Below are positions 1 through 29,944 of a stretch of 31,267 nt of DNA, piece by piece. A program made the position numbers and the translations under genes. The notes beneath the pieces are model-generated. The model saw only the letters and a list, made by a program, of their open reading frames with translations. It searched no databases and had not been told where the DNA came from. The stretch is from positions 1 through 31,267 of the IMG/VR virus record IMGVR_UViG_3300042453_000526; one strand, given 5' to 3'. Positions within the stretch are counted from its first letter, which is position 1, and each line of letters opens with the position of its first letter. This DNA is from a virus (lineage: Duplodnaviria; Caudoviricetes).

Positions 1-706
1 GTCCCTGTGGCCCTTGTATGCCCTGAGGTCCTTGTGGACCCTGTGGCCCTTGTATGCCCTGTGGGCCTTGCGGTCCCTGTGGTCCTTGTATACCCTGAGG
101 TCCCTGTGGTCCCTGTGGCCCTTGTATGCCCTGAGGTCCTTGTGGACCCTGTGGCCCTTGTATGCCCTGTGGGCCTTGCGGTCCCTGTGGTCCTTGTATA
201 CCCTGAGGTCCCTGTGGTCCCTGTGGCCCTTGTATACCCTGAGGTCCCTGTGGTCCCTGTGGCCCTTGTATACCCTGAGGTCCCTGTGGTCCTTGTATGC
301 CCTGAGGTCCTTGTGGACCCTGTGGCCCTTGTATGCCCTGTGGTCCTTGTGGACCCTGTGGTCCTTGTATGCCCTGTGGTCCTTGTATGCCCTGAGGTCC
401 CTGTGGTCCTTGTATACCTTGTGGCCCTTGAGGTCCCTGTGGTCCTTGTATACCTTGTGGCCCTTGAGGTCCCTGTGGTCCTTGTATACCTTGTGGCCCT
501 TGAGGTCCCTGTGGTCCTTGTATACCCTGAGGTCCCTGTGGTCCTTGTATACCTTGTGGCCCTTGAGGTCCCTGTGGTCCTTGTATACCCTGAGGTCCCT
601 GTGGTCCTTGTATACCTTGTGGGCCTTGCGGTCCCTGTGGTCCTTGTATACCCTGAGGTCCCTGTGGTCCCTGTGGCCCTTGTATACCCTGTGGTCCCTG
701 TGGTCC
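1..706 (-). repeat. 9-bp-periodic collagen (Gly-Pro-Gln/Gly-Ile-Gln) coding repeat
   Basis: Tandem ggtccctgt/ggtccttgt/ccttgtatac units; the minus frame reads GPQ/GIQ triplets. Confidence 0.95.
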
Positions 707-3700
707 TACTGCCTGTAATCCGTTAGCGTAAAAAAATTCGCCAGAAGTTATAACATTGCCAGCTATTACATTTCCAGTGACATTTAAACTTGAACCTATA
801 TTGGCGTTATTATTGATAGATAAAGAATTAGCGGTTAATGAATTATTCAATATAATAGAATTTGCTAAGACATTAGTACCTATCAAATTACCACTTAGAC
901 TTAATCCAATTAACGTTCCAACATTTGTTATGTTGGGCTGATCAGATGTAGTAATTAATCCAGATATGCTTGTAGAATTTAACGTGTCTATATAGGCATT
1001 AGCCCAATATGCAGTGGTATTGCCCAAATTTAATATTGCATTACCTAAAGGAGAAAATGCAACGTTAGTTTGCCAACTATTTAGAGATGTACTATATTTT
1101 AAAGTTATTAAACTAGCACCATTAGAATTACCTATCAAAATACCAGCGTCATTAAGATCGGATATATTTGACGTATTATTTGCAAGTAAAATATCTTTAT
1201 CATTAACTGTAAATATCGTACTATCAATGTAAGTTAAATTTCCAGTTACACGTAAATTTCCCTGAATAATTACATTTCCAGTGCTTCCAACATTTGCAGG
1301 TTCAATAGTTATAGTATCACTAGTACTAGATATTGTATTATTTGAAATATTAAATTCGCCGATAGTAAGTGATGATCCAACCGATGTTATATTGGATTGA
1401 CTTGCTGTTACTAAAGTCCCGGTAATTAATGATGTAGAATTACCAATAAACGAGGCGATAATTTCATTCGATGTTATTAAAGTAGCTACGTTTAAATTGT
1501 TTGCACTGATGTTGCCCGTGAACGTGCCAGTTGTACCGCTTATGTTTCCATTTAGAGTGTCCGCTGAGATGTTGCCCGTGAACGTGCCAGTTGTACCACT
1601 TATGTTTCCATTTAACGTATCTGCCGAAATGTTGCCAGTAAATGTACCAGAATTGGCACTTACATTATTTGTTACAAAAACATCAGAGAATGTGGGACTA
1701 TTTTGAGTGCCTACACCTAAATTTACAGAAAAAGTTGTTCCAGCACTTGTAAATACAGATAGATTACTGGTTGTTATATCATATGTAACATTACTCACAC
1801 CAGCAACTGGTGTAGTATTTGCTAATGTAATTCTACCCTTAGTATCAACTGTTATAACTGGAACAGCACTAGCATTCCCATATGTACCAGATTCTACACC
1901 ACTATCTTGAAGTCGTTGAGTAACTACATTGCCATTAGAATCTATCACAGTCTGGCCAGCTACAACAACATTTGCAGAGGTATTGATATTTCCAGAAACG
2001 ACTAATTGATTATTTTGACCTATTTGGCCAATATAAACATTAGACGTTCCATCTGGCTGTAATACAATATTATCATTTGAATTTATGACATAAATCGTAT
2101 TGTCTAAAATAGTTAGATTTGACAAATAGGCTTGACCAGACGCAGTTAAATCACCAAGTATTGTTACACTATTGGACGATTTATCAAAAGTAAACCCAGC
2201 TGTTCCGTTAATTATACTTTCATCATTGAATAAAACTTGTGTGTTAGCACCCGCTGAACTAATATTTCCAGATATATTACCAACAACATTTCCAATAAAA
2301 TTTTGTGCTGTAATATTTGAACTAACATTTAAATTACCAGGAGTGTCTAAATTACCTCCTGTTGTAAACGTCCAAGATTGAGTTCCAGAAACGGTTACTA
2401 CTACATTTCCATCTGTAAAAACTTTTACATTGCTAGTACCATTTTGTATGCTTGTCGTATCTATACCAGTTAAAAATCTACCATTTCCCTGAAAATAATT
2501 TCCCGTGATATTTCCAGAAACATTTGCATCAGACGTTAATATTAAATTGCCAGTTTTAATAGTGCCGTAAGTACCAGAAACAATATTGCCTATTTCACTT
2601 TCTACATTACTATAGTATTCGAAATAGCCCGTAGAGTTTTTTCTACCAAAAAATGAAGATTTATTTTCTGTATCATAGTAATAAGTTCTTACACCACTAT
2701 CAAATCCATCATCATATATTAACGGTGCACCATTTGGTCCAGTATTCAATGTAATGATCGGATCAACAACAGACAAATCACGTATATTAAAGTATGTTAT
2801 GTTGCCTTGTACACTTAAATTTCCTTGTACTAATAAATTACCATTAATATTAGCAGTTAATGCATCTAAATTTGTTAATGTGCCTAGTTGCGTTATGTAT
2901 GGTTGAGATGAAGTTGTTAATATTGCTGATGTGTTGCCAGTATATATTGGCAAATACGATGCTACGTTAACATTACTATAATTACCTACTGGTTCATCAT
3001 CAATAAATAGTTGACCACCCTGTACTGAAACATTTGCACCAGAAATTACAAGACTATTACTTAAATATAAATTAGAAAAGTTGTAATCAACATTACCAAG
3101 TGTATAAATCGCATTAGCAGTAGGGATTAGATTAGTGATAGTTGTAATAGCACCACTACCAATAGGTTCGCCGTTAGGATAAAAAGCTCCAGCTGTTATT
3201 ACATATCCAACAGTTTCAATATTTCCATATGCAAATACGTCATTGGTTCTTACATTACCGCTATTCCAAATGTTGTTGGAAACAATAACATTAGCATTTA
3301 TCTCAGTGATGCCATTGCCTTGAAAAACACTGTATAATTCCGTAAAATTTTGATTTATCTTACTGAATGCAACATATAAATCATCACCTGTTTGAGTATT
3401 TGGACCTTCTCCTAAGTCAATTAAATAATTATTTGATTGTATAGTTAAAACTTCAATACTAGAAATTACGGGCTGTTCTTCGACACTTAACAACATTGGA
3501 AATTCATTTAATGACTCGTCTTGTGATTCTTCCTCTATAATTTCATTAATTTCTAAATTAGGTTGATCTTCCTCTAAAAGTATTAATTCTTCTTCCGGAG
3601 ATTCTGAAGATACTTCAACTATAGGTAAATGAGATAATATGATTGAATTAAAAATATTGAATAATTCTGTAAAATTTTCGTTTATTTTTGTAAACGCAAC

Positions 3701-4069
3701 ATAAAAATCATCACTCTGATTATTACCTAAGTTAACTAATTTTGGATAAAGTTTTGGACTACTAACAACTATATTGTTATAAACATTATAAATCGCATTA
3801 AAATTTTGATTAGTTTTATTAAATGCTGTCGATATATCATCAATAATATTATTTGATGCATCAAGAGACAAATTTATTGTTTTAGGTGTGGTGTTCGCAT
3901 ATCGTAAAGTTGTTACTTTATACGCAGGAACAAAAATTTCCAGAATTCCTGGTTCAAAAACTCTGAATAATTCATTAAAATTTTCATTGATTTTTGTAAA
4001 GGCCGAGTATAGATCATCACCTGTTTGACTATCTGGTCCTGTGCCTAAATCAATTATTCTCTGGGACAT
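1..4069 (-). CDS. Giant collagen-like tail fibre / baseplate-anchored fibre protein (>1356 aa, 3' end outside window)
   Basis: Not in the ORF track because it has no stop inside the window. Hand translation from ATG at 4069 gives [35 protein letters not shown] (T4 gp9/gp10-type N-terminal motif). I read it stop-free to ~1480, and the same frame gives ...[14 protein letters not shown] then (GPQ/GIQ)n from ~706 to the window edge. Late promoter CTAAATA upstream. Confidence 0.9.
1508..1648 (-). repeat. 60-bp (20-aa) tandem repeat, ~2.3 copies, [20 protein letters not shown]
   Basis: gttgcccgtgaacgtgccagttgtacc occurs at 1511 and 1571, with a degenerate copy at 1631. Confidence 0.85.
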
Positions 4070-4095
4070 CGTGTAATCCAATAAATCTATAAGTA

Positions 4096-4102
4096 TATTT
4101 AG
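4096..4102 (-). promoter_or_regulatory. T4-type late promoter (CTAAATA)
   Basis: TAAATA core 26 nt upstream of ATG 4069. The same core precedes most structural operons here. Confidence 0.65.
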
Positions 4103-4127
4103 CAAAAAGAGATTTATCAGTTAATGC

Positions 4128-4177: not shown

Positions 4178-7100
4178 TTAGTGTTTTACTACTATTTCTA
4201 TAACTGATGTTAAGTTATCATTATTTGCAGTAAAATCTTCTAACGCTTTTCCTATTACGCTACCCACAACTGGACTACTGCATGCTTGTGCGAATCCATT
4301 TGCAGCAGATACTAATATGTCACCTTTTTTGACAGAACCGATAATTTTAACTGGAACTCTACCCTGTAACGCGACAGCTACTACATGAGTTGATGACAGT
4401 TCGCTATTCATTAAATAAGCTGGATTTGTACTAACTACTCCTGCAACCGAAGTAGACATATTCGTCGTAGTTATAGTTACTTCTTTTGTTCCGCCAAACT
4501 CTAATACTGTGCCTGGACTGTAATTTGCATCAGCTATGTATAATTCAGCAAGGTCGGCATATTGTGCAGACGTAGCAGTTCCAAAAAATTTACCTCCAAT
4601 AATGACATTACCTGCACTAGCTCCGGATATGTTTAAGTTACCCGTTCCTGGATTGTATCTTAAGCCAGGATCATCGGCATATGCAATTTGACTTGATCCA
4701 ACTGCAGGAACTAAAACTGGATAAAAAGTAGAATTTGATGCAGTATCGGTTGCATTTATGATGGTACTAGGACCAGTTGGACCTTGTGGTCCAGTGGGAC
4801 CTTGTGGTCCAGTTGGGCCTTGTGGTCCAGTAGGTCCTTGTATGCCCTGCGGTCCTTGCGGGCCCTGTGATCCTTGTGGTCCAGTAGGTCCTTGTATGCC
4901 CTGAGGTCCTTGCGGGCCCTGTGATCCTTGTGGTCCAGTAGGTCCTTGTATGCCCTGTGGTCCTTGTGGTCCTTGTGGTCCCTGAAGACCTCTTGGTCCT
5001 TGTGGTCCTTGTGGTCCAGCGACAGAACTTGCTGCTCCCTGTGGGCCTTGTGGACCAGTTGGTCCCTGTGGTCCCTGTACTCCTAAATTACCTGTTCTAG
5101 TGAAAGATATTGATAATATTTCATTATTTGTTGGAATTGAACCAGATATATACGTTACAGTTATTTTCCAATAATTAGTAGAATCTACTGAGGCTCCGGT
5201 AATTTTAAATATATTAATTGTTGTTTGAGTTGCCGCTGCCCCACGGATAATTAAATATCCTCTATCAGTTGTTGTTGTAGAGTCATCCCACTCTCCTATG
5301 AAAGCGGACTGATTTATACCATTAAAATAATCAATATCATTAATGTATAATGTTGTGACTGACCCAATTGTACCACTACTGTATTTTATTTTTCCAGTAC
5401 CTGGATCAGAGTCCGTGGTGTTGTTACTCCACTGGTAAAGAACTCCAGTGTTATATGCGTCACTTCCTGGATTTCCTTGTGGTCCTTGTGGTCCTTGTGG
5501 TCCTTGTGGTCCCTGCAAACCACGTGGTCCTTGTGGCCCCTGCGCGCCTTGTGGCCCAGGTACAGAACTTGGTGCTCCCTGTGGGCCTTGTATGCCTTGA
5601 GGTCCTTGTGGGCCTTGTATGCCTTGGGGTCCCTGTGGTCCTTGTATGCCCTGTGGTCCTTGTGGTCCTTGTGGTCCCTGTGCGCCTTGTGGTCCAGGTA
5701 CTGTACTTGCATCACCAGGTAAACCACGGGGTCCTTGTGGTCCTTGTATTCCCTGCGGTCCTTGTGGTCCCTGTATACCCTGTGGTCCTTGTGGTCCTTG
5801 TGGTCCCTGTATACCCTGTGGTCCTTGTGGTCCTTGTGGTCCTTGTATGCCCTGTGGTCCTTGTGGACCTTGTGGTCCTTGTGCGCCTTGTGGTCCAGGT
5901 ACTGTACTTGCATCACCAGGTAAACCACGTGGTCCTTGTGGTCCTTGTGGTCCTTGTATACCCTGTGGTCCTTGTGGTCCTTGTATGCCCTGCGGTCCTT
6001 GTATGCCCTGCGGTCCTTGAAGTCCTTGTGGTCCTTGTATGCCCTGTGGTCCTTGTGGTCCTTGTGATCCTTGTGGTCCAGTAGGTCCTTGTATGCCTTG
6101 TGGCCCTTGTGGTCCTTGTATACCCTGTGGTCCTTGTGGCCCTTGTGGTCCTTGTATACCCTGTGGTCCTTGTGGTCCTTGTGGTCCTTGTATGCCCTGC
6201 GGTCCTTGAGGTCCTTGTGGCCCTTGTATGCCCTGTGGCCCTTGAGGTCCTTGTATGCCCTGTGGTCCCTGTGGCCCTTGAGGTCCTTGTATGCCCTGTG
6301 GTCCTTGCGGTCCCTGTATACCTTGCGGTCCCTGTGGGCCTTGTGGTCCCTGAGGTCCACTCGCACCTACTGCACCATTTAAATTTACTGTCCAAGAACT
6401 AAATGTGGTTTCGACACCTGCTACTATAGTTACATTAACAATTAATGTAGAATCAGAGTATGAGGTCACTGTTCCTATCATGTAATTACTGGAAGAATTT
6501 GCAATAATTACAGCTTGTCCTATCGAATAAGCTAAGCCTGTTCCTATTTGAAGAGTTTTTTCACCAGTAGAATTTAAAAGCGAACTGCTAGATGTTGTTG
6601 AATATGTATCCCCCACTGGACCTCTTGGTCCTTGTATACCCTGTGGTCCCTGTGGTCCCTGTATTCCCTGAGGTCCTTGTGACCCTTGTATACCCTGTGG
6701 GCCTTGTGGTCCTTGTATACCCTGTGGTCCTTGTGATCCTTGTGTTCCAACATCACCGACTGCACTTATAGTCCATGAATCAAAAGTTCCAGATCCAGAG
6801 GTATATACTGAATTAATTGCAAAATTTGTTCCACTATATGTAGTTATTAATCCTTCCATATAAGTTGTTGGAATAATTGTGTAAATAATTCTAACTCGTT
6901 GACCTACTGTAAATGCACTTTGTGTATTTGACTTATTTACTGTAAAAGTTTTAGTTCCATTTCCGATCGAAACGGAAGTTGATGAAGTCAATGTTTCATA
7001 TCCAAGTCCAGTCGGTCCTTGTGATCCCTGCGGCCCTTGTATGCCCTGTGGTCCTTGTGGACCCTGAGGGCCTTGTAAACCTCTTGGTCCTTGTGGTCCT

Positions 7101-10100
7101 TGTATGCCCTGTGGTCCTTGTGGTCCTTGTATGCCCTGTGGTCCTTGTGGACCTTGTGGCCCTTGTATACCCTGTGGACCTTGTGGTCCCTGTATACCCT
7201 GCGGCCCCTGTATGCCTTGTGGTCCTTGTGGTCCCTGTGATCCTTGAGGTCCAGAAGGTCCTTGTGGCCCAGTTGCGCCGACCGCACCCGAAAGTGCAAC
7301 TTGCCAACTATTATATGTTCCTGAACCAACATTTGATACTGAGTCAACTATCATTCTTCCATTACCAGAAGCATACGATGACACTGTACCTATCCAATAA
7401 TTACTTGAGTTATTAGATATTGTAACTGATTGCGCAGTAATATAAGCTAAACCCGTCGCCACGATAAATGTGACTTCTGTAGGATGAGAGATAGGTATTG
7501 CAAAGTTTGTACTACTTGTTGTTGCATATCTATCACCAACGGGTCCTTGTGGTCCTTGCGATCCCTGTGGTCCTTGTGGTCCTTGTGGTCCTTGTATACC
7601 CTGTGGGCCTTGTGGTCCTTGTATACCCTGTGGTCCTTGCGGTCCTTGTGGTCCTTGTATGCCCTGTGGTCCTTGCGATCCCTGAGGTCCCTGTATCCCC
7701 TGAGGTCCTTGTGGTCCTTGTATGCCCTGAGGTCCTTGTGGTCCAGGCACAGAACTTGCTGCTCCCTGTGGTCCTTGTGGACCCTGAGGCCCTTGTGGTC
7801 CTTGTATACCCTGTGGTCCTTGTGGTCCTTGTGGTCCTTGTATGCCCTGTGGACCTTGTGGTCCTTGTGGTCCTTGTATGCCCTGTGGACCTTGTGGCCC
7901 TTGTATGCCCTGTGGTCCTTGTGGTCCTTGTGGTCCTTGTATACCCTGTGGTCCTTGTGGTCCTTGTGGTCCTTGTATACCCTGTGGTCCTTGTGGTCCT
8001 TGTATGCCTTGAGGTCCTTGTGGTCCTTGTATACCCTGTGGTCCTTGTGGTCCTTGAGGTCCAGAAGGTCCTTGTGGCCCAGTTGCGCCGACCGCACCCG
8101 AAAGTGCAACTTGCCAACTATTATATGTTCCTGAACCAACATTTGATACTGAATCAACTATCATTCTTCCATTACCAGAAGCATATGATGACACTGTACC
8201 TATCCAATAATTACTTACATTAAAAGAAACAGTTACTGACTGAGCAGCTATATAGGCTAATCCAACTTCTACAGTAAACGTAACTGTTGTTGGATGAGAA
8301 GAAGGTATCGCAAAGTTTGTGCTACTTGTTGTTGCATATCTATCACCAACGGGTCCTTGTGGTCCTTGCGATCCCTGTGGGCCTTGCGGTCCCTGTGGTC
8401 CCTGTATACCTTGTGGTCCTTGTATGCCCTGTGGCCCTTGTGGCCCCTGTGGGCCCTGTATACCCTGTGATCCTTGCGGTCCCTGTATACCCTGTGGTCC
8501 CTGTATACCCTGTGGTCCTTGTGGGCCCTGAGGGCCTTGTGGTCCAGGCACAGAACTTGCTGCTCCCTGTGGTCCTTGCGGTCCTTGTGGCCCTTGTATA
8601 CCTTGAGGTCCTTGTGGTCCTTGTATGCCCTGTGGGCCTTGCGTTCCTTGTGGACCTTGTATGCCCTGTGGTCCTTGTATGCCTTGAGGTCCTTGTGGTC
8701 CTTGTATGCCCTGTGGGCCTTGCGGTCCCTGAGGTCCCTGTATGCCCTGAGGTCCTTGTGGGCCTTGTATACCCTGTGGGCCTTGTATACCCTGTGGGCC
8801 TTGTATACCCTGTGGTCCTTGTGAACCTTGTGGTCCAGAAAGACCTTGTGGTCCTTGAGGTCCAGAAGGACCTTGTGGACCAGTTGCACCGACCGCGCCC
8901 GAAAGTGCAACTTGCCAACTACTATATGTTCCAGTTCCTATGTTTGACACTGAGTCAACTATCATTCTTCCATTGCCAGAAGTATAAGATGACACTGTGC
9001 CTATCCAATAGTTACTTGAGTCATAAGATATTGTAACTGATTGAGCAGCTATATAAGCTAAACCAGTTTCAACAAAAAATGTTACTTGTGTTGGATGAGA
9101 AGTAGGTATTGCAAAGTTAGTGCTACTTGTCGTGGCATATCTATCACCAACGGGTCCTTGTGGTCCCTGTGTACCCACTGGGCCTTGTGGACCTTGTATA
9201 CCCTGTGGACCCTGTGGGCCCTGTGGTCCAGGCACAGAACTTGCCGCTCCCTGTGGTCCTTGCGGTCCAGTAGGTCCCTGAGGTCCCTGTGCTCCTTGTG
9301 GTCCAGGTACATTACTCACACCACTAGGTCCTTGAGGTCCTTGTGGACCTTGAGAACCTTGCGGCCCTTGTGGACCGCGATCACCTTGAGGTCCTTGTGG
9401 ACCTTGACTACCCTGTGGTCCCTGCGCACCTAAATTACCTATAGGTCCTTGAGGTCCTTGAGGTCCTTGTGTTCCAACGCCACCCGCTACACCTTGTGGT
9501 CCCTGAGGACCTTGTGGTCCCTGAGAACCAGAAGGTCCAGAAGGTCCTTGTGGACCCGGAACAGTGCTTGCTGCACCAGTAGGTCCTTGTGGTCCTGGAG
9601 GACCAGATGGACCAGGTACGGTACTTATAGGACCAGTGGCACCAGTAGGTCCTTGAGGACCAGACGCTCCGGTAGCTCCGCTAGGGCCACGTGGTCCTTG
9701 TGCGCCACTTGGTCCTTGTGGTCCCTGAGGACCTTGCACTCCTCTTGGTCCTTGTGATCCTTGTGGTCCAGAAACTCCCGAAGGACCTTGCGGACCTTGC
9801 GCTCCCTGTGGTCCAGTTGGTCCTTGAGGGCCTACCGCTCTTACACCATTTGCATAAAAATAATCACTTGCTATTACATTGCTTGTAAATGTAGAATTAG
9901 CAGCATTAACAACAAAAACATTTGAAATGCCAGCAATACTTGTTGCTACATTTCCACTTGAATAGACAATAACATTACTAGAACCATTTTCTATTCTTGT
10001 ACCACCTGGTAATCCAGACAAGAAATAACCATTACCTAGAAAGTATTCTGCATCAACATTACCTGCTACTGTTAACAAATTTGCTTGTTTTTCGAATGTA

Positions 10101-11260
10101 AATCCTGTACTTCCTGCTAACACATTAGCATCGTTGAACATTACTTGTGTATTTGCTCCAGCAGCACTAGCCACTACTAGAGTTTGACCAGCACTTAAGA
10201 ATCGTATGTCAACATAAGGATCAGTTACACCTACATTATAAGCAAAAGTTATTGCATTTCCACTTACTGTATAGTCAACATTTGGTTGCAATACAACATT
10301 ACCCTGTATTGCCAAAATACCTTCGGCAGTCGTTACTTGATTTAGTGGATATGTTGCCGAATTATTTCCCTGAATAATTTGTTCTGTAACTAGGCCGGAA
10401 ACTGGAATCCAATCAGTTCCATTATAATATTCTAGTACAGTCGTATCAGTGTTATATCTGATTGCACCCGTTGCCGTAATTGATGATCTGTCTCCAGTAG
10501 ATCCAACTGGTAAAGTCAAAGCCCCAGTTGTGTTTATTGTTACTAATTTGTTAAGACCTGGAACTATTTCTAAGTTCGCCAACACATTCGTAGAACTTAT
10601 GGTATTACCAATTATAGAAATATTTCCTACATTTACAGTAGTAAAGAATGCCGCAGCAGGATTAATATTACCTATTATCGTGCTTTGTAAACCCCCATTG
10701 GCGATCAATGTTGTTCCAAATGTGCCACTATTATTGATAATTAAATGATTGCCATAAATATTACCGCGAACAATTAAATCCTCTAAAATTTCTACATTGC
10801 CGCCGAAGAAACCATCACCATTTACATTTAAATTGCCACCAAAATTGCCATCACCGTTTACGTCTAAATTTCCACCGAAAGAACCATTGCCGTTTACGGC
10901 TAAATTTCCACCGAAAGAACCATTGCCGTTTACGTCTAAATTTCCACCGAAAGAACCATTGCCGTTTGTTTCTAAATTTCCACCGAAAAATCCACTACCG
11001 TTTACTTCTAAATTTCCACCAAATATTGCACCACCATTGAACGATACATTACCTGCACCACCGGATAATAAATCAGCAGCATTAGCCCATGTTCTTGAAC
11101 CATCAACATTACCGATAAGAACATAGCCATTACCCGACGGTAATCCAAGATCGGGTTCAGCGTCACTTAATCCAAGGAAGGTATATCTACCTGGATCAGC
11201 ATTAGCACTTGGAGTTTTCGGTACTCTACCGCTTATGAGATTGTTACTAATTTTAGACAT
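4178..11260 (-). CDS. Giant collagen-like long tail fibre (2360 aa) with C-terminal Peptidase_G2-type intramolecular chaperone/autocleavage domain
   Basis: Seven GPQ/GIQ collagen blocks separated by globular domains, and 12-aa GGNLxVNGxGxF repeats near the N-terminus. The C-terminus [13 protein letters not shown]...[12 protein letters not shown]...[10 protein letters not shown]...KGDILVS...IGKALE resembles the GA-1/phi29 gp12 chaperone domain. Confidence 0.9.
7242..9145 (-). repeat. Three ~0.8-kb tandem duplications of a collagen block plus an ~85-aa globular domain
   Basis: The [14 protein letters not shown]...[10 protein letters not shown] domain starts at 9145, 8344 and 7534 (spacing 801 and 810 bp). 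Segments ~8052-8215 and ~7242-7405 are nearly identical. Confidence 0.9.
10797..11020 (-). repeat. 36-bp (12-aa) tandem repeat GGNL(E/D/A/N)(V/T)NGxG(S/F/N)F, ~6 copies
   Basis: Repeated ctaaatttccaccgaaagaaccattgccgttt units, typical of trimeric beta-helix fibre shafts. Confidence 0.9.
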
Positions 11261-14928: not shown

Positions 14929-15684
14929 TTATCTCATCTTACAATTATCGCCATGCCAACGTGCATATCCATTAACTGCCACAAGTTTCTGACAATGTGG
15001 GCATAATTTCTTTTCTCTTTTTTTGCCTATATTTGCCATACCTCTAGCAATCTTTTCTTCTTCCGTTTGCTTTCTACCACGAATTTTATCGCCAATTTTT
15101 TTGCGAGTTTCCGCACTTATGTTACCATTAAATCCCGGTTGTTTACTTTTGTGATTTTTTGATAAATTTTCTAACCATTCATGACTAAAAGACTCTCGTT
15201 TTTTGCCAATTTTAGATTCTGATATTTTCTTTCGTGTTTCTGGACGTTTAGCAGCATTTTTATCACCAGATATTGCTTCTTTGTGTTTAAGATATCCTTC
15301 CTTGCTACGATAAAACTTATCGCCGTACATGGGATTTTTTTCTCCACTGTATCGTTGACTCTGAAGTTTTGAATATTCTTCTTTTAAATTGGAGTAAACT
15401 CTTGCTGTTATCTTCGTTGTATATCGTTTTTGTCTTGGATTTTCTGCTCGCATCATTCTGAATGCATTAACCATTTTCCAATGTTCTTCACCTTCAGTAT
15501 ATATTTTTGTCAATAGCCAGTGACATATAAAATGTTCTCTAGCCGTTAATCTCGTTAAATTCACGACATCATCTGATCCTCCTAAACTTTTAGGTAAAAT
15601 ATGATGCGTTTCGGTGTATTCGTGTGTGACCCTGTTTTGAGCGGATTCTGTGATATTTTTATACCATTTTTCGTATTTGTTCAT
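14929..15684 (-). CDS. Free-standing HNH homing endonuclease with NUMOD3 repeats and C-terminal zinc finger (Mob-like)
   Basis: HHILPKSLGGSDDVVNLTRLTAREHFICH HNH motif; ETRKKISESKIG and ETRKKIGDKIRG NUMOD3-type helices; CPHC...H...C at the C-terminus. Confidence 0.9.
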   Translation of the reverse strand: MNKYEKWYKNITESAQNRVTHEYTETHHILPKSLGGSDDVVNLTRLTAREHFICHWLLTKIYTEGEEHWKMVNAFRMMRAENPRQKRYTTKITARVYSNLKEEYSKLQSQRYSGEKNPMYGDKFYRSKEGYLKHKEAISGDKNAAKRPETRKKISESKIGKKRESFSHEWLENLSKNHKSKQPGFNGNISAETRKKIGDKIRGRKQTEEEKIARGMANIGKKREKKLCPHCQKLVAVNGYARWHGDNCKMR

Positions 15685-24055: not shown

Positions 24056-24898
24056 ATGAGCGAACAAACTGAAAATCCACTAAAAAAATATTATCGTCAA
24101 CCACAACTTTACATAAAATTACCAAGTAAAGGTGAATGGTGGCCAGAAGGAAGTTTATCAAAAACAGTTACCAATGAATACCCAGTATTCGCCATGACTG
24201 CACGTGATGAACTAGCACTTAAAACACCAGATGCACTATTGAACGGACAATCGACGGTAGATGTTATTCAAAGTTGTGTGCCAAGTATAAAAAATGCTTG
24301 GCATACGCCAGTTTGTGATGTTGATCACATTCTAATAGCAATCAGATTAGCTACATATGGCAACGGCATGGATTTTGTTAGTATATGTCCACACTGCAAG
24401 CACAAAAACGAACATACTCTTGATTTACAATCATTGCTAGACAAATATGCTGACATTCCAACATGGAATAAACCAATACACATAAACGATCTAATCGTAG
24501 TTCTAAAACCAGAATCTTACAAAACGTTTAATAACAGAAGCATTAAAACATACGAAGAACAACGTGTACTACAAGTTATTAATCAAGAAGGCCTAGAAGA
24601 AGTAGCTAAATTAGAAAAGTTCAAAGAACTATTTAAAAATCTACTCAAACTAACTGTGGAACAAGTTGCTGGGAATATTAATTACATCAAACTAGATGCC
24701 CACACAGTGGTAGATAATGAATTATTCATAAATGAATTCTTTCAAAATTGTGATCGTGTCGTGTGGAACAAGGTCAATGACACTATCAACGAAATAAAAA
24801 GTAGTATACCAACTAACAATGTAGAGTTGGTATGCGAATCTTGTACTAAAGACTATAAAACTCCACTGGTATTTGAAATGTCCAATTTTTTCGGCTAA
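24056..24898 (+). CDS. gp26: Baseplate hub assembly protein, T4 gp26-like (chaperone-like)
   Basis: IKLPSKG, MTARDE, DVDHILIAIRLATYG, CPHC...CESC zinc pair, ending SNFFG. Confidence 0.8.
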   Translation: MSEQTENPLKKYYRQPQLYIKLPSKGEWWPEGSLSKTVTNEYPVFAMTARDELALKTPDALLNGQSTVDVIQSCVPSIKNAWHTPVCDVDHILIAIRLATYGNGMDFVSICPHCKHKNEHTLDLQSLLDKYADIPTWNKPIHINDLIVVLKPESYKTFNNRSIKTYEEQRVLQVINQEGLEEVAKLEKFKELFKNLLKLTVEQVAGNINYIKLDAHTVVDNELFINEFFQNCDRVVWNKVNDTINEIKSSIPTNNVELVCESCTKDYKTPLVFEMSNFFG

Positions 24899-24903
24899 CG
24901 CTT

Positions 24904-25122
24904 TTGACTCTAACCAATGAGGAAGTAATCAAACTAATTAATGATTACGACCGGGAGTCAAAAGCGTTACGGAAATACATATACAAGTTAGTATGGTATA
25001 TGCGAGGTGGTGTAAATCTTGACCAAGCATTCGAAATTGGATATCAAGACAGAGAGATCATCAATAAAATTATTGAAGAGAACATAGAAAAGACCAACGA
25101 AACCGGTCATCTGTTTATTTGA
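24904..25122 (+). CDS. Small gp51-like baseplate hub assembly protein, probably made as a -1 frameshift extension of the upstream ORF
   Basis: TTG start without SD. The frame stays open back to the T TTT TTC heptamer at 24886-24892. Confidence 0.7.
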   Translation: MTLTNEEVIKLINDYDRESKALRKYIYKLVWYMRGGVNLDQAFEIGYQDREIINKIIEENIEKTNETGHLFI

Positions 25123-25183
25123 TTTCTCTAGACGCCATTAGTCATTTATACAACAACTTTTTATTCTATTTTTATACATTATG

Positions 25184-25260
25184 ATGAAGTGTGCTTCGCA
25201 CACTCATATCGTCATCGTTAATCTTCGTCGTCTATGCTCCTCAGATTAACTTGACGATGA
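25184..25260 (-). other. Paired hairpins with GCGAAGC mini-loop and tandem G.A mismatches (ssDNA-signal/origin-like; may also terminate convergent transcription)
   Basis: Minus strand AGTGTGC-GAA-GCACACT (25204-25188) and ATCGTCA-A-GTTAATCT-GAGGAGCATAGACGACGA-AGATTAAC-GA-TGACGAT (25258-25208), flanked by AT-rich tracts. Confidence 0.55.
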
Positions 25261-25299
25261 TTTATAGGGATTAATATTTTAATAAGTACCACCTATACC

Positions 25300-25765
25300 A
25301 TTCATCTAGATTACTGCCTCACTTTCGCCCACGGAGGGCAAAAAAATCGTAGCTAGGCTACGATGTGGGGTGTTTTCATCTGAGTTGACCACCACACAGC
25401 ATCAGGACTACAACAACATCTGTGCTTTGCAACACAGGAAATGTAACGCAGGCGGTTATCCGGTACCTACTCATCCAGTCTTTCATACAACGGCGGGCTA
25501 TATCGGTGATGCTGTCCTCCAATATAACCGTGCGATATCACTATCGCGTCTTTTTACCCATAATACCTGTTCAAACAATCAAACCGCGGGATTGGCGGTC
25601 TACGTCCTGTCAAGGATAGTGATTGAGTTCTCGTAACAGCGTCGAGGTTCCATTCCCTGTGACCCGGCGGTCCAGTTTTAGGGCATCCGAAATTAGGCCG
25701 ATGCTAGCCATTAACTGTTTAAATGTTTGCCTGAAGATTGCGCAAGTATGCGATGCGTCGCTGTA
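25300..25765 (-). ncRNA. Candidate large structured non-coding RNA (~450 nt), family unassigned
   Basis: GC-richer non-coding island with ~10 stems, GNRA loops (GUGA, GCAA), G.U wobbles that work only on the minus strand, and a 9-bp loop pseudoknot. Boundaries are approximate. Confidence 0.7.
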
Positions 25766-26197
25766 TTAGCCGTGATGAATTAATTGTTTAACCTTACGAA
25801 CTTTAACTGATATCCACTCATTGTACCAATCATCTGATAGCAATACGCCATAATCAAATTGATACTTGGCTTCATAATAGTTAAGTTCGTTTTTTGAATA
25901 ACAATATTTTAATATTTGCCTGTTAAAATTGTGTGAGCCTAAGTTTTTTACTTCTTCTGTTAATACCGTGTTTGAGCCATAATAAGTTTGCCAGTCGCTG
26001 TCTATTTCGTACCTAATTTTTGTTTTTTTCTTGGAGCCGTTTTTGAGCCTTGATGTTTTTAATTTGATTTTTTTAAATTTTGATAATTTTTTACCTATAT
26101 ATTTTCGTCCAGATAACTTGTTAGTGATTAGATATACAAATCCAACTACATTATCTGGTAAATTTTCAATCTGTTTGTCTTCAAATAACCATGTCAC
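25766..26197 (-). CDS. Small GIY-YIG family endonuclease (143 aa)
   Basis: GFVYLITN...KYIGKK motif, SDWQTYYGS, Glu in YYEAKYQ, Asn in WYN; Lys-rich insertion; no C-terminal DNA-binding modules. Confidence 0.88.
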   Translation of the reverse strand: MTWLFEDKQIENLPDNVVGFVYLITNKLSGRKYIGKKLSKFKKIKLKTSRLKNGSKKKTKIRYEIDSDWQTYYGSNTVLTEEVKNLGSHNFNRQILKYCYSKNELNYYEAKYQFDYGVLLSDDWYNEWISVKVRKVKQLIHHG

Positions 26198-26201
26198 TGT
26201 G

Positions 26202-26209
26202 TATTTATA
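26202..26209 (-). promoter_or_regulatory. Late promoter TATAAATA (exact T4 consensus)
   Basis: Ends 4 nt before the GTG start of the GIY-YIG gene. Confidence 0.75.
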
Positions 26210-26225
26210 ACATGCCTACTGTCTA

Positions 26226-28004
26226 TTAATTTTTTACTACCTCAATGTCCGAATCGTATTTAGTGAATCCACTTTCCTTGATTACGTGTAGTATGTTATT
26301 CACTCTGCTTGCTAGTTCATCTTTATGACTTACTAACCACACTGATCTTCCACCATTTCTGGCCATTTGCTTTAGAATTTTTAGTGAGTTTTCAACGCCT
26401 GAACTATCCATGCCAGAATCAACTAGTTCGTCAATAAACAACAAATTAATTGGTTGATATAAACTTTCCCATACATCACGAAATGCCCAACTTAAACTTA
26501 AGATAAGTCTATTGCGTTCACCACGTGATAGATTATCAAAGTCTAACTCACGACCTAATTCTTCAATACTGACAGATAAATCATTGTTAAATTTCACAGT
26601 GTGTGGCAAATCAATGTCACTTAAATAATAAGCTAGACGACCATTTAAGAAAGCCAAGTTCTGATCTATGATTTGTTTTCTAATGAAACTATCTTTGTTT
26701 GTTAGAAGTTTTAATAGAAACTCCTGATGATCACGCATACGTGTTAGTTTATTAATCATATCATAGGAAATTTCTTCTATACCATCTTTTTCCATCTCAA
26801 TTATTTGTTCAGCGTATGGATCAGTTTCTGTTACTTTTTTCTCTAGTTGTGACAGTAGATGTTCTATACTGCTCTTGTGTGTTATAGCCTCGGATTCAGT
26901 TGCATAAAATACAACAGGTTCCTCACCGAGTTCACCTGCATTCGTAATTTTACTATTTACACTCTCAAGATCAATTTTGATTTGATCAATTATTTTTTGA
27001 GTTTTTGCAAGTTCACTAGTTTTTGTTTCCAGTAGCTGAGTATGATTGTCATCATGTAATTCTTGACCGCAGCTATGGCATTTATGATTTTTTAATGAAT
27101 CAATATCGATTTTATATTGATCTAGTGTTTTTTGTTCTCTTATTAAATCCTTGGATAAAGATTTTTTATTTTTATCTAGATCGGACAATAATGTTTTCTT
27201 TGCTTTGAACGCTACAAGATTTTTATGCGCCGCAAGTTCTTCATCTATGTTCAATTTTAACAAATCTTCGTAAGCTGTACTTAGATCAAGTAGATCCCTT
27301 TCATGCTTGTCGAGCCACAGTTTTTGTCTACGTTTAGTTGAGTTGATTTGTTCTTGAATACGGGTGTTTGCATCTTTAACCGCTTTGATCCTAAATTCTT
27401 CTTGTTGAATGCCATCTTTAGTTAATCTAATTTGTTCCTTCAATAGATCAGCTTTTTCACTCAGAAGTGTGATGCCTAGTAATTGTTCAATGATAGTTCT
27501 CTGATCATTAGCCTTAAGACTTAAAAATGGTTCAGTGTATGTATTCAGAGCCACAATATGTTTGAACATATCGTGTTTCATGTTAATCAGTTTTTCTATT
27601 TCTTGTTGTGTTTCTCTACTGTCACCTTGACTGTTGTCATCTGAACTCTCAACTTCACGATCATTTATGAAAAACTTTAGAACATTAGGCTTTCTTCCAC
27701 GTTCTATTCTGTAATTTTTGTTATTACACTCAAAATCAACGGTAACTAACATATTTTTGCCGTTGGTTTTGTTAATCAAATTATCTTTTTTGATGTTTGT
27801 CAAAGCTTGACCATAGAAAGCATAACTTAACGCATTGATAATGGAAGTTTTTCCTGTGCCATTACGACTGCCAGCATCGTCACCGCCTAAGTCTATATTA
27901 CTACCAAGAACTAGTGTTAAATTCTCCCTGTCAAAATTTACAGCTTGTGTTTGATTTCCTATTGAAAGAAAGTTTTTTGCTGTGATTGTTTTGATTTTTA
28001 ACAT
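26226..28004 (-). CDS. gp46: Recombination endonuclease ATPase subunit, gp46 (Rad50/SbcC)
   Basis: KNFLSIGN, Walker A NGTGKT, coiled coil with CHSC zinc hook, LSRGE signature, LFIDE Walker B, VSH. Confidence 0.95.
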   Translation of the reverse strand: MLKIKTITAKNFLSIGNQTQAVNFDRENLTLVLGSNIDLGGDDAGSRNGTGKTSIINALSYAFYGQALTNIKKDNLINKTNGKNMLVTVDFECNNKNYRIERGRKPNVLKFFINDREVESSDDNSQGDSRETQQEIEKLINMKHDMFKHIVALNTYTEPFLSLKANDQRTIIEQLLGITLLSEKADLLKEQIRLTKDGIQQEEFRIKAVKDANTRIQEQINSTKRRQKLWLDKHERDLLDLSTAYEDLLKLNIDEELAAHKNLVAFKAKKTLLSDLDKNKKSLSKDLIREQKTLDQYKIDIDSLKNHKCHSCGQELHDDNHTQLLETKTSELAKTQKIIDQIKIDLESVNSKITNAGELGEEPVVFYATESEAITHKSSIEHLLSQLEKKVTETDPYAEQIIEMEKDGIEEISYDMINKLTRMRDHQEFLLKLLTNKDSFIRKQIIDQNLAFLNGRLAYYLSDIDLPHTVKFNNDLSVSIEELGRELDFDNLSRGERNRLILSLSWAFRDVWESLYQPINLLFIDELVDSGMDSSGVENSLKILKQMARNGGRSVWLVSHKDELASRVNNILHVIKESGFTKYDSDIEVVKN

Positions 28005-28011
28005 AACTTAC

Positions 28012-29028
28012 TTATAGTCCTCTATACAATTCCAACAGAAGACCAGGATCATATTGATCACTATTAATCTGATTAAGTTGATTAGTAACGATTTGATCAA
28101 CGGTTTGGAAATTTATATTACCTTTAATTTCGTATTGATCCATGTCTGAACTTTTGTTTCTCATGATTGAGATTTCACGTAGTCCATGTGATTTGATAAA
28201 GGTTTCTTTGATGAAGTTTGCCTCTTCATATGAGATATCAATATCAATATTTACTCTCACATGCATTTTGTGTTTTAATACTTCATCAGTCTTATTGAGT
28301 AGATCACTAAGTGTAAGAACTCGATAGGTTGGTTGATCAGGCCACGTATGATAAACTGGCTTTTTGCCCCACTCAAGAATCATTGCACCACGTGCATCAT
28401 CACCAGCATCAGCATAATTGTGTGGGAAACAATTACCAATATAGGTAATGTTATTATATGTTTGACGTTTATGAAAATGACCACTGAACACGTGATCAAA
28501 GTGTTCAAAATGTTCACGTTTGATTTCACTGTGATCTGGCATTGCTACCATTGCATTCATCAAGAAATGAGGCAGTTCAAAGTGTCCAAAAATGTATTTG
28601 GCTTTTAGTTTTGGAATTTTTTTGTAATCGTCGCCTAACATCCAAGGAGCAATGATGACATCGCCTTCCTTGTGCCAGTCGTTACAAATAACTACCTTAT
28701 CTAGATGTTTGGCCCATTCGACACTTTGAATATCACGTTTGTCTTTATAGTAAAGATCGTGATTTCCGGGAATGAAAAATACTCTATTAAAATTAGCATT
28801 AAGATGCTCAAGTGCTTTAATACTATAGTTGAGAGTAAGGATGTTTATTGCCGCACGATTATTATTCCAGTCTCCTAGAAATAATGCGGTATCACAGCCT
28901 TGTTCTACTCCTAATTTAGTCGCCCACTTTATAAAAGATAAACAGTCATCATTATGTAGTTGACTGTTTGTCTTTAATCCAAAATGGATATCCGTGCAAA
29001 CTAATGCTTTTTTAAATAAATTGTTCAT
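28012..29028 (-). CDS. gp47: Recombination endonuclease nuclease subunit, gp47 (Mre11/SbcD)
   Basis: Metallophosphoesterase motifs DIHFG, FLGD, GNHD, GHFE, SGHFH. Confidence 0.95.
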   Translation of the reverse strand: MNNLFKKALVCTDIHFGLKTNSQLHNDDCLSFIKWATKLGVEQGCDTALFLGDWNNNRAAINILTLNYSIKALEHLNANFNRVFFIPGNHDLYYKDKRDIQSVEWAKHLDKVVICNDWHKEGDVIIAPWMLGDDYKKIPKLKAKYIFGHFELPHFLMNAMVAMPDHSEIKREHFEHFDHVFSGHFHKRQTYNNITYIGNCFPHNYADAGDDARGAMILEWGKKPVYHTWPDQPTYRVLTLSDLLNKTDEVLKHKMHVRVNIDIDISYEEANFIKETFIKSHGLREISIMRNKSSDMDQYEIKGNINFQTVDQIVTNQLNQINSDQYDPGLLLELYRGL

Positions 29029-29080: not shown

Positions 29081-29944
29081 TCATTCTTCGTACATTCCGC
29101 TGCCAGTGGCCATATTTTGTCTGGTATAGCTAGGATTCAAATTGTTTAATTCTAGAATATCATCACGTAGATTTTGATTCCGTTTTTCAATATTTAAAAC
29201 TCTCGTAAAAGCATTTGTTATCGCCGCAGTATAGTAGGCAAATGGATTTAAACTTTTGCTCTCATCAAACTGAAGACCAATTTGACTTAACTGAAGTAGT
29301 GCTTGACTACGCATTTCATCATTGTATGTATAGCCTCGCCAGTTGCTACGGGTAGCATAGCGTTCACATAATTTCATGAACATATGTGCAAGTTTGTTAG
29401 TCATTTTTCCATGATCTTTACTAAAATGTCCATCAGTTAAAGATCCCTTCCAGTGACTTCTACCTACGAGGTAAGGATTGACTTCCGAATCAACTTTATA
29501 GTGTACAAATGGTGGAAAATTAACTTTTATATATTTGGCTGGTTTAACGTCTTCTTCATCGTATTCAGTATGGATGATTTCGTCATCATCGTCATCTTGT
29601 ACAATGTCCTTTGCTTTTGATAATTTTGATGTATCATTTGGCACATGTTCCCATGTCATAACTCTAAAAACTAAATCAGTAACTTTAATATCGCTTTCTT
29701 TAATTTGACAGTCGTCTAGTTTTTTCTTTTCTTGTGAATCAGTAGAACTTCTTTCAAGTTCCAACTTTGACAATCGTTCGGCACGATTTTTAATTGCCTC
29801 TTCTATATTCTTATTGATATCAGACACATTGCTTAGAATAATGTCGTAGTGTTCGCAGGTTGAGTCTAGATAACTGCAATATGAATTTTTGCTTTTATGA
29901 ATTTCTTTAAGAATATCCTTGTTGTTTAAGTAATTGGTTTTAAT
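29081..29944 (-). CDS. gp55: Late-transcription sigma factor, gp55-like (287 aa, probable ATT start)
   Basis: NWRGYTYNDEM...FDESKSLNPFAYYT motifs. The frame extends 39 codons above the track's GTG (29827) to include NYLNNKDILKEIHKSK, with SD AAGGAG 7 nt before ATT 29944. Confidence 0.9.
   Translation of the reverse strand: MKTNYLNNKDILKEIHKSKNSYCSYLDSTCEHYDIILSNVSDINKNIEEAIKNRAERLSKLELERSSTDSQEKKKLDDCQIKESDIKVTDLVFRVMTWEHVPNDTSKLSKAKDIVQDDDDDEIIHTEYDEEDVKPAKYIKVNFPPFVHYKVDSEVNPYLVGRSHWKGSLTDGHFSKDHGKMTNKLAHMFMKLCERYATRSNWRGYTYNDEMRSQALLQLSQIGLQFDESKSLNPFAYYTAAITNAFTRVLNIEKRNQNLRDDILELNNLNPSYTRQNMATGSGMYEE

Follow-up and report, generated by a model that had tools for sequence, protein, structure and literature searches.

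We analysed a stretch of viral DNA (Duplodnaviria; Caudoviricetes; IMG/VR record IMGVR_UViG_3300042453_000526), whose full length of 31,267 nucleotides (nt) is referred to below as the window and in which a large noncoding element follows the gene of a GIY-YIG nuclease on the minus strand. The reading that we favour, with a probability of about 0.5, is that the element is a replication origin of a jumbo phage, primed through an R-loop in the manner of plasmid ColE1 and phage T4, and that the GIY-YIG protein is likely a junction resolvase and not a partner of the RNA. An earlier note on this DNA had a nuclease-RNA partnership as its headline and a replication RNA as a side option; the side option is now the best reading, and the headline is not supported. 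The region under study consists of the GIY-YIG gene (26197-25766) and the gap down to the end of a convergent gene at 25122, and the element itself is made up of the following parts:

25573 to 25719, minus strand: 5′ domain of the RNA, comprising the Polynucleobacter-1 motif and the 5′ pseudoknot arm (Rfam, covariation)
25396 to 25547, minus strand: middle domain of the RNA, with hairpins, two pseudoknots, the helix 25476-25473/25408-25405 and the conserved AGGUACCGG..ACCGCCU core (covariation)
25375 to 25381, minus strand: first copy of a direct repeat, AGATGAA, preceded by ACTC (alignment)
25323 to 25364, minus strand: segment between the repeats, with a lineage-specific hairpin, a U tract and the conserved hairpin UUUGCCC/GGGCAAA (alignment)
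25301 to 25307, minus strand: second copy of the repeat, AGATGAA, identical to the first and preceded by ATCT
25261 to 25290, no strand assigned: AT-rich tract, a candidate unwinding element (judged from its sequence and from similar tracts in relatives)
25209 to 25260, no strand assigned: stem with a GA-rich loop inside it, the form taken in the window by a stem-GAGCGnnAGCGAA-stem element of the family, primosome-site-like (motif in 68 of 87 relatives)
25189 to 25203, no strand assigned: terminal hairpin with a C-GAA-G triloop, DNA-type (C-GNA-G pattern of the relatives)

The conserved, knotted structured element is real. As the earlier note had described, the ~640-nt gap (25123-25765) is noncoding and GC-richer (0.47-0.49 vs. 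~0.33), and its minus strand folds better than shuffled sequences (z −2.3; 0 of 100 as good). Related loci were gathered by protein search (38) and with a 19-nt motif (120, from an estimated ~1100 stretches); dereplication gave 93 loci, and 88 of these were aligned piecewise. Among the 120 motif loci, 46 had too little upstream DNA and were dropped, as were L091, L099 and L104, which were chance matches. Watson-Crick covariation, detected by mutual information, runs in these relatives from 25718 to the terminal hairpins. Most of the stems that the earlier note had named are paired and covarying in the 88 dereplicated relatives: GCAUC/GAUGC is paired in 99%, CUG/CAG in 92%, GACC/GGUC in 79%, CUCG/CGAG in 94%, CAAUCA/UGAUUG in 90%, GCGAUA/UAUCGC in 71%, the 11-bp stem in 82% and UUUGCCC/GGGCAAA in 95-100%, while the GACCGC stem draws its support from the mutual-information analysis. 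Two of the named hairpins proved to be lineage-specific, the insertion hairpin 25437-25420 being present in only 9-11 of 88 rows and the hairpin 25364-25346 in only 3 of 88. The CGG/CCG hairpin is invariant, partly because it was used as a search motif. Three pseudoknots were found: 25719-25715/25639-25635, 25515-25507/25404-25396 and 25491-25487/25459-25455, the last formed by GUUGU and the loop of the CGG/CCG hairpin. The first of them, the 5′ arm, is paired in 84%, with double changes in three of its five pairs. When six helices that the Rfam model does not cover were examined in an independent alignment (45 loci), 95% of cells were paired and 23 of 34 pairs showed two-sided changes; none of 500 shuffles scored as high, and slid controls, which are lenient because the structure was derived from these sequences, gave 37-50%. 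Among the 39 covarying pairs, 161 G.U against 49 A.C combinations fix the RNA on the minus strand, as had been claimed.

The element is longer than was first described, reaching from 25719 to ~25190 and including the repeats and the terminal hairpins that had been missed. Its sole Rfam match in the window is Polynucleobacter-1 (RF01718), which covers the 5′ 137 nt (25709-25573, model positions 1-141, 111 bits against a gathering threshold of 37). The earlier note did not recognise the RNA as tRNA, tmRNA, RNase P or an intron; a match to a known family, which it had itself named as a refuting result, is now at hand. No Rfam match in the window was obtained for group I or group II introns, tRNA, tmRNA, RNase P, GOLLD, ROOL or HEARO, ARAGORN reported 0 tRNA or tmRNA genes, and the flanking open reading frames (ORFs) are intact. 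Strings resembling the P7 helix of group I introns were considered and set aside, as they disagreed with the covariation. The element is single-copy in five of five long contigs and sits at a fixed locus with no sign of mobility; it is not the largest ORF-free gap, ranking 12 of 41, 6 of 39 and 19 of 22. In L106 (1600-2130), the core motif stands in a divergent structured region that lacks the 3′ repeats; a QueD-like gene is close by, whereas neither gp46 nor a short GIY-YIG gene is.

Polynucleobacter-1 was described from Burkholderiales of fresh water and estuary, its function being left open (Weinberg et al. 2010, PMC2864571), and the supplementary alignment of that work has 16 rows, 11 of them of ~290 nt, with one pseudoknot and a GGUACCGG core. 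The 5′ two-thirds of the RNA are therefore already published. The 5′ pseudoknot, the pseudoknot between GUUGU and the hairpin loop, the twin repeats, the DNA-type tail and the exchangeable nuclease do not appear in that supplementary alignment; other supplements of the same paper may mention a phage context.

Two 7-nt repeats came as a surprise; they lie outside the published alignment, are spaced 47-79 nt apart and flank the conserved GC hairpin. Within each locus, the two copies were identical in 92 of 92 cases (88 of 88 parsed automatically and four read by eye; L106, which is without the 3′ domain, was not counted). Nine variants of the repeat occur, and on a tree of the 5′ part only, which leaves the repeats out, the type switches ~36 times; the perfect identity covers five variable positions. 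The rule also holds in 11 of 11 distinct loci with a PD-(D/E)xK (PDDEXK) nuclease and the motif, and in the different RNA type of L240. The two copies keep different flanks (CTC and TCT), a difference that speaks against simple gene conversion; at the position 5 nt ahead of the repeat, the base is the same for both copies in 77% of loci. A complement of the repeat was not found within 300 nt of the core motif (2 matches vs. 3.9 for other repeat types), and no column of the GIY-YIG alignment predicted the repeat type much above the shuffled maximum (normalised mutual information 0.36-0.77 vs. a 95% null of 0.30-0.76). The only complement that is always available is the opposite DNA strand, and pairing between an RNA copy and a DNA complement is therefore the simplest reason for the identity. 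We infer that one copy in the RNA pairs with the DNA complement of the other copy, in either direction. Antiparallel pairing between the copies was dropped, as it leaves the identity unexplained. Translational bypass, in which the repeat would be a codon plus UAA or UGA, was set aside because repeats in cultured phages lack a stop.

After the second repeat, RNA-type hairpins give way sharply to DNA-type ones. The 25209-25260 element folds as DNA on both strands (z −4.7 and −4.8), and the ratio of G.U to A.C pairs, 161:49 in the RNA part, is 20:12 in the tail. C-GNA-G triloop hairpins occur downstream of the second repeat in 47 of 87 loci and upstream of it in none of the 87; C-TNC-G, which is how this loop reads on the opposite strand, is found in 41 of 87 loci, and GAGCG..AGCGA in 68 of 87. 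GNA triloops are especially stable in DNA. One copy of the stem-flanked motif is present in each of the long contigs G001 and G002, at the end of the RNA, and a variant in G005 escaped the pattern. A scan with the tail alone gave 23 matches, each of which ends a long noncoding stretch of this sort, the RNAs in front belonging to at least three types overall, though many are near-duplicates and the pattern was derived from the family; 16 of the 23 are of the L200 kind and follow an RNase H gene. The different large RNAs of this locus all run out into the same AT tract and hairpins. In the ColE1 record, GAGCG..AGCGA is matched once, at 1332; the G6 runs at 928 and 1175 lie upstream of this match. 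One such match is not rare by chance (~0.4 expected, by estimate); its position and its agreement with locus L013 (16 of 17 nt, by eye) carry the weight. In phiX174, GCGAAGC is found at 2358, in the F-G gap. We take the ColE1 hairpin at 1332 and that of the phiX174 F-G gap to be primosome sites, though the two records do not annotate them as such, and the G-runs of ColE1 to be the anchor of RNA II. Primosome sites are hairpins read by PriA, according to the sections of the literature consulted (PMC5778457). A plasmid blastn search with the hairpin tail returned one chance match only.

Cultured jumbo phages show a comparable arrangement. Beside gp46 or close to it, they carry a gene for endonuclease VII (121Q, GAP32 and XaC1; phrog_423, E ~1e-33) or for a PF24608 protein (MIJ3 and Phosso), and in all five phages a gap of 0.8-1.5 kb follows that nuclease gene. 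In 121Q, GAP32 and XaC1, the structured core within the gap is another one, shared by the three phages; 7-nt repeats flank a CCCC/GGGG hairpin, an AT tract and hairpins of the GNA type are present as well, and a σ70-like −10 element of the TATAAT type was seen upstream by eye. This ~500-nt structured element between endonuclease VII and the baseplate hub, conserved among the three phages, is unannotated in their records (L254:3510-4345, L255:3398-4201 and L256:3423-4214). An RNase H gene lies next to the element in L049, in the L200 group and in Phosso. Other large structured RNAs without an Rfam match occupy the same locus in further relatives (L200:3600-4170, L222:3060-3560, L224, L240, L242, L216, L223 and L030). 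L030, L216, L223 and L240 share the 3′ domain, behind a different 5′ part, and L222 and L224 have twin repeats of their own, GGCAATG and GGCAAAT (by eye). An Rfam e-value scan of the cultured gaps and of these other RNA types gave nothing credible. In PA5oct, four ORFs of 38-50 amino acids (aa), labelled hypothetical, are annotated over what seems to be the equivalent noncoding element (L257:1668-3180, PA5oct 75667-77180).

Taken together, the folded RNA, the matching repeats, the AT tract, the hairpins, the single copy and the RNase H neighbours fit ColE1 RNA II, and T4 oriF/oriG more loosely. In the mechanism that we envisage, ~420 nt (25719-25300) would be transcribed, here probably as the tail of a gp55-gp47-gp46-nuclease transcript, and the folded RNA would bring one copy of the repeat to the DNA strand that is the complement of the second copy. 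Pairing of an RNA on its own DNA would require the copies to match even though the RNA itself holds no complement. Acting as an anchor, the repeat might then hold an R-loop open across the AT tract, where a primer end would be left by RNase H or a related nuclease, and the displaced strands could form GNA-triloop hairpins on both strands, loading the primosome or a phage helicase. More tentatively, and as something that we consider possible without holding it probable, the whole jumbo-phage clade may start replication at this one locus by means of large, interchangeable RNAs with several pseudoknots, each self-addressed by a short co-evolving repeat that could drift in sequence provided that its two copies still match, with bidirectional primosome-type hairpins and possible processing by the neighbouring junction nuclease (GIY-YIG, PD-(D/E)xK or endonuclease VII).

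Origins primed by RNA are a known kind. In ColE1, the hybrid of RNA II with the DNA persists and is processed by RNase H to a primer, with a primosome site downstream. The ColE1 primer is a noncoding RNA of ~550 nt whose fold is needed for R-loop formation, as stated in the parts of the review consulted (PMC5043065). The likeness to the present element, a long structured RNA with covariation over ~420 nt, is one of structure only: no homology of RNA sequence was shown, and the repeats here are of mixed sequence and vary between phages. A GAGCGTAGCGAG segment stands downstream of the two G6 runs of the ColE1 record, which is a further point of likeness. As to an antisense RNA like RNA I of ColE1, the only σ70-like match on the plus strand (25251-25280) is weak and below chance. 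At T4 oriF and oriG, initiation is primed by a transcript over an AT-rich unwinding element; in the account consulted, these origins are of ~100 bp and depend on a middle promoter but on no specific RNA sequence (PMC3016281), whereas the present element is 420-530 nt long, highly structured and conserved.

Several observations weigh against an origin. A 7-bp AU-rich hybrid is weak. Taken one at a time, the repeats of the cultured phages fall short of significance (P 0.10-0.16), and a hidden Markov model (HMM) of the family finds no homology there, so that their likeness is one of layout only. None of the four noncoding RNAs detected by RNA-seq of PA5oct lies in the equivalent gap, in the sections of that paper available to us (PMC7318152), and its supplement has no rows for the gap. 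No σ70-type promoter was found on the RNA strand of the window, which has a late-type motif upstream instead, and T4 R-loop origins use middle promoters. Transcription of the RNA is unsupported by metatranscriptome contigs, in runs that were chosen by the window sequence. A change of GC skew at the element beyond that due to gene strand was not found in G001, G002, G005, 121Q or MIJ3 (five of five follow gene strand), a weak negative, since T4-type phages replicate mostly by recombination. The phages have a Pol B of their own in three of five cases and a DnaB-like helicase in four of five, here in distinction to ColE1, so that a site for the host primosome is not obviously needed. RNase H of the PF00075 family is absent from G002.

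As to transcription, eight sequence-matched expression runs from two studies were available, all as contigs. In four polyA metatranscriptome runs of one study, selected by this stretch, near-identical contigs cover the GIY-YIG ORF and head genes, and over the RNA there is only a 67-nt piece of a relative, which says nothing either way. Runs X5-X7, in which 25208-25720 is matched by a contig from a relative, are probably DNA. The TATAAATA late promoter reported earlier is indeed present ahead of the nuclease gene (26209-26202), but the motif occurs twice in the window against 3.75 expected and, ahead of the gene, in none of 58 relatives, and TAAATA precedes 7 of 23 window ORFs checked; judged from sequence, a late promoter is plausible here and is not conserved. 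The observation that no terminator-like site lies between the GIY-YIG stop codon and the start of the RNA holds.

The element and the nuclease stand in a window that is a fragment of a T4-like phage, with head, portal, baseplate, gp46, gp47 and gp55 genes. The genes and the promoter-like motif around the element are:

29081 to 29827, minus strand: gp55-like late sigma factor, first of the gp55-gp47-gp46-nuclease block (phrog_12791 at E 1e-62, phrog_234)
28012 to 29028, minus strand: gp47-like (SbcD/Mre11) nuclease subunit, before gp46 (Metallophos)
26226 to 28004, minus strand: gp46-like (SbcC/Rad50) ATPase (AAA_23/SMC_N; tblastn)
26202 to 26209, minus strand: TATAAATA, a possible late promoter, unconserved in relatives (motif search)
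25766 to 26197, minus strand: stand-alone, Seg-like GIY-YIG nuclease of 143 aa (PF19835 at E 8e-29, phrog_447, alignment, model)
24056 to 25122, plus strand: convergent baseplate-hub gene (24056-24898) and 72-aa gene (24904-25122), which border the element here, in many relatives and in cultured jumbo phages

The nuclease has the fold and the catalytic Tyr/Tyr/Glu/Asn of the GIY-YIG superfamily, with Y22, Y33, G35, E109 and N126 invariant in the alignment, and we take it to be of the Seg type, having Lys where I-TevI-type enzymes carry Arg. In the predicted model (mean predicted local distance difference test score 89), the nearest structure is the I-TevI catalytic domain (Z 8.2, root-mean-square deviation 2.8 over 82 residues) and Slx1 is far off (Z 3.0), so that the fold alone is no proof of a resolvase role. 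Neither the GIY-YIG nor the PDDEXK protein had a sequence match in PDB, and Foldseek gave none at E < 0.001. The Lys-rich insertion is basic and a predicted β-hairpin; a shorter, still Lys-rich version is kept in homologues without the RNA. The C-terminal DNA-binding tail of Seg homing enzymes is lacking, as the earlier note had it (~140 aa among the best 120 matches of a length-limited search), and with its single copy at a fixed locus, the gene shows neither the tail nor the sporadic insertion of a homing endonuclease. Homologues are carried by 75 cultured phages; phrog_447 is labelled "NAD synthetase" in PHROGs and in many phage records, apparently a mis-annotation. In L109, the GIY-YIG frame is shifted near the C-terminus with the RNA intact, owing to an assembly error or to a dispensable C-terminus.

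What the nuclease may do is suggested by what replaces it. Among 25 records, mostly partial, PF19835 is present in 21 and PF24608 in three others; PF19835 is absent from four cultured genomes, and endonuclease VII from G001-G004, with 121Q as a positive control (PF02945 missed even annotated endonuclease VII, and phrog_423 and the 121Q protein were used instead). The Holliday-junction resolvases endonuclease VII (phrog_423) and phrog_244/PF24608 hold the gp46-adjacent slot in relatives, and they and the GIY-YIG protein were never found together. From this exchange of the slot with endonuclease VII and PDDEXK_15, we consider the GIY-YIG protein likely to be the junction resolvase of its lineage; it differs from those enzymes in being a Seg/I-TevI-like GIY-YIG protein.

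The same exchange speaks on the partnership between RNA and nuclease, in which the RNA would form a ribonucleoprotein with the GIY-YIG protein and supply its specificity, as in OMEGA, HEARO or TIGR-like systems. As in such RNA-nuclease systems (OMEGA, HEARO, TIGR-Tas), the structured RNA here lies at or across the stop codon of the nuclease gene. GIY-YIG lies upstream on the same strand in 66 of 74 informative motif loci, the first RNA stem begins 1-69 nt past its stop in 40 of 45 loci, and the protein combines a missing DNA-binding tail with a basic hairpin. Unrelated genes of 250-340 aa, though, stand between GIY-YIG and RNA in 5 of the 66 loci, and in three motif loci the slot holds the PD-(D/E)xK protein PF24608/phrog_244 (labelled Holliday-junction resolvase). 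A search with this protein, whose fold is unrelated, gave 28 loci; in 15 of them the core motif is present, the same RNA with the same repeat types following the gene. Of 20 sources that were scanned for RF01718, 6 contain it. Conversely, 10 of 38 GIY-YIG loci lack the RNA; all ten are without gp46 upstream, which is present in 25 of the 28 RNA loci (some of whose rows trained the HMM). Gene and RNA are not inherited as an obligate pair. No guide-like variable segment of guide length was found in the alignments, no column of the protein tracks the repeat, and the element, single-copy and fixed in place, forms no array and is not a mobile multi-copy element, all in distinction to the systems named. 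The RNA follows the locus, not the nuclease, and a partnership is very unlikely.

Other explanations can be set against an R-loop origin. The RNA may act free, as a structural, catalytic or protein-sponging molecule (GOLLD/ROOL-like, or a ribozyme), with the repeats binding a homodimeric protein whose gene lies elsewhere and the DNA hairpins a separate neighbouring signal; its three pseudoknots and many invariant unpaired bases exceed what a T4 origin, which is independent of sequence, would need, its 3′ domain is pseudo-symmetric, and the listing in the 2010 survey, in the parts consulted, is as a likely RNA, possibly cis-regulatory (PMC2864571). We find this doubtful, because identity at five variable positions through ~36 changes is probably stricter than is usual for protein sites, and because one and the same DNA-type tail is joined to RNA types that are unrelated. 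We hold as unlikely that the element is a cis-acting R-loop or cruciform site for late recombination or packaging initiation, cut by the adjoining junction nuclease. A resolvase-type nuclease does adjoin it in most loci and in five of five cultured phages, a late-type motif is present in the window, and contigs of the GIY-YIG ORF co-occur with those of head genes in the four RNA runs of one study; genes can nevertheless insert between nuclease and element, no junction nuclease lies within 2 kb in L077, the cultured phages have the σ70-like promoter before the element, and RNase H adjacency and primosome-like hairpins suit priming better. Extremely unlikely, finally, is template jumping by a reverse transcriptase (like DRT2 or telomerase), which would make concatemeric DNA from the 47-79-nt unit: identical short repeats flanking a hairpin and the matching base 5 nt before them would fit, but the unit length is not a multiple of three and no RVT_1 (PF00078) was found in five of five long contigs, including the 99% complete G002 (the control was found in 3 of 14; a very divergent reverse transcriptase might escape).

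Elsewhere in the window, gp46 has its nearest cultured matches in Pseudomonas PA5oct-like phages, Phosso and jumbo phages of the RaK2/121Q/GAP32 group (tblastn, 50% to Pseudomonas jumbo phages), and a relative with the same element measures 345 kb and is rated 99% complete. Five matches lie in contigs of metagenome-assembled genomes (Bacteroidetes, Flavobacteriales, Polynucleobacter) that are too short to name a host. An HNH/NUMOD3 homing endonuclease gene (14929-15684, minus strand) stands directly behind the major head gene, with the second TATAAATA of the window ahead of it (15697-15690); there are no further copies besides the gp46-side one. The regions 2-4105 and 4178-11260 (minus strand) each encode a very large protein, probably a tail fibre, in which GPQ repeats form long collagen-like stretches. 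In many relatives (L228, L230, many motif loci), a variable gene starting MK[IV]xE[IV] comes right after the terminal hairpin, behind an ATAAATA motif.

In the literature searched, we found no earlier description of the rule that the repeats are identical, of the DNA-type tail, of RNAs that replace one another or of the exchange of three nuclease folds. Nor did we find, in the open-access literature, that an origin or a structured RNA had been described at this place in jumbo phages of the RaK2/121Q/PA5oct group. Neither origin nor skew is discussed in the MIJ3 paper, and the Minerva preprint does not treat the Polynucleobacter-1 motif. If our interpretation is true, phrog_447, a widespread family of stand-alone GIY-YIG proteins, would become a third fold among phage resolvases. 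The step by which a persistent R-loop arises from a folded RNA is speculative even for ColE1, in the parts of the review consulted (PMC5043065), and the identical-repeat rule would be a direct genetic handle on it. An Rfam motif orphaned for 15 years would gain a function, and these phages would gain an origin.

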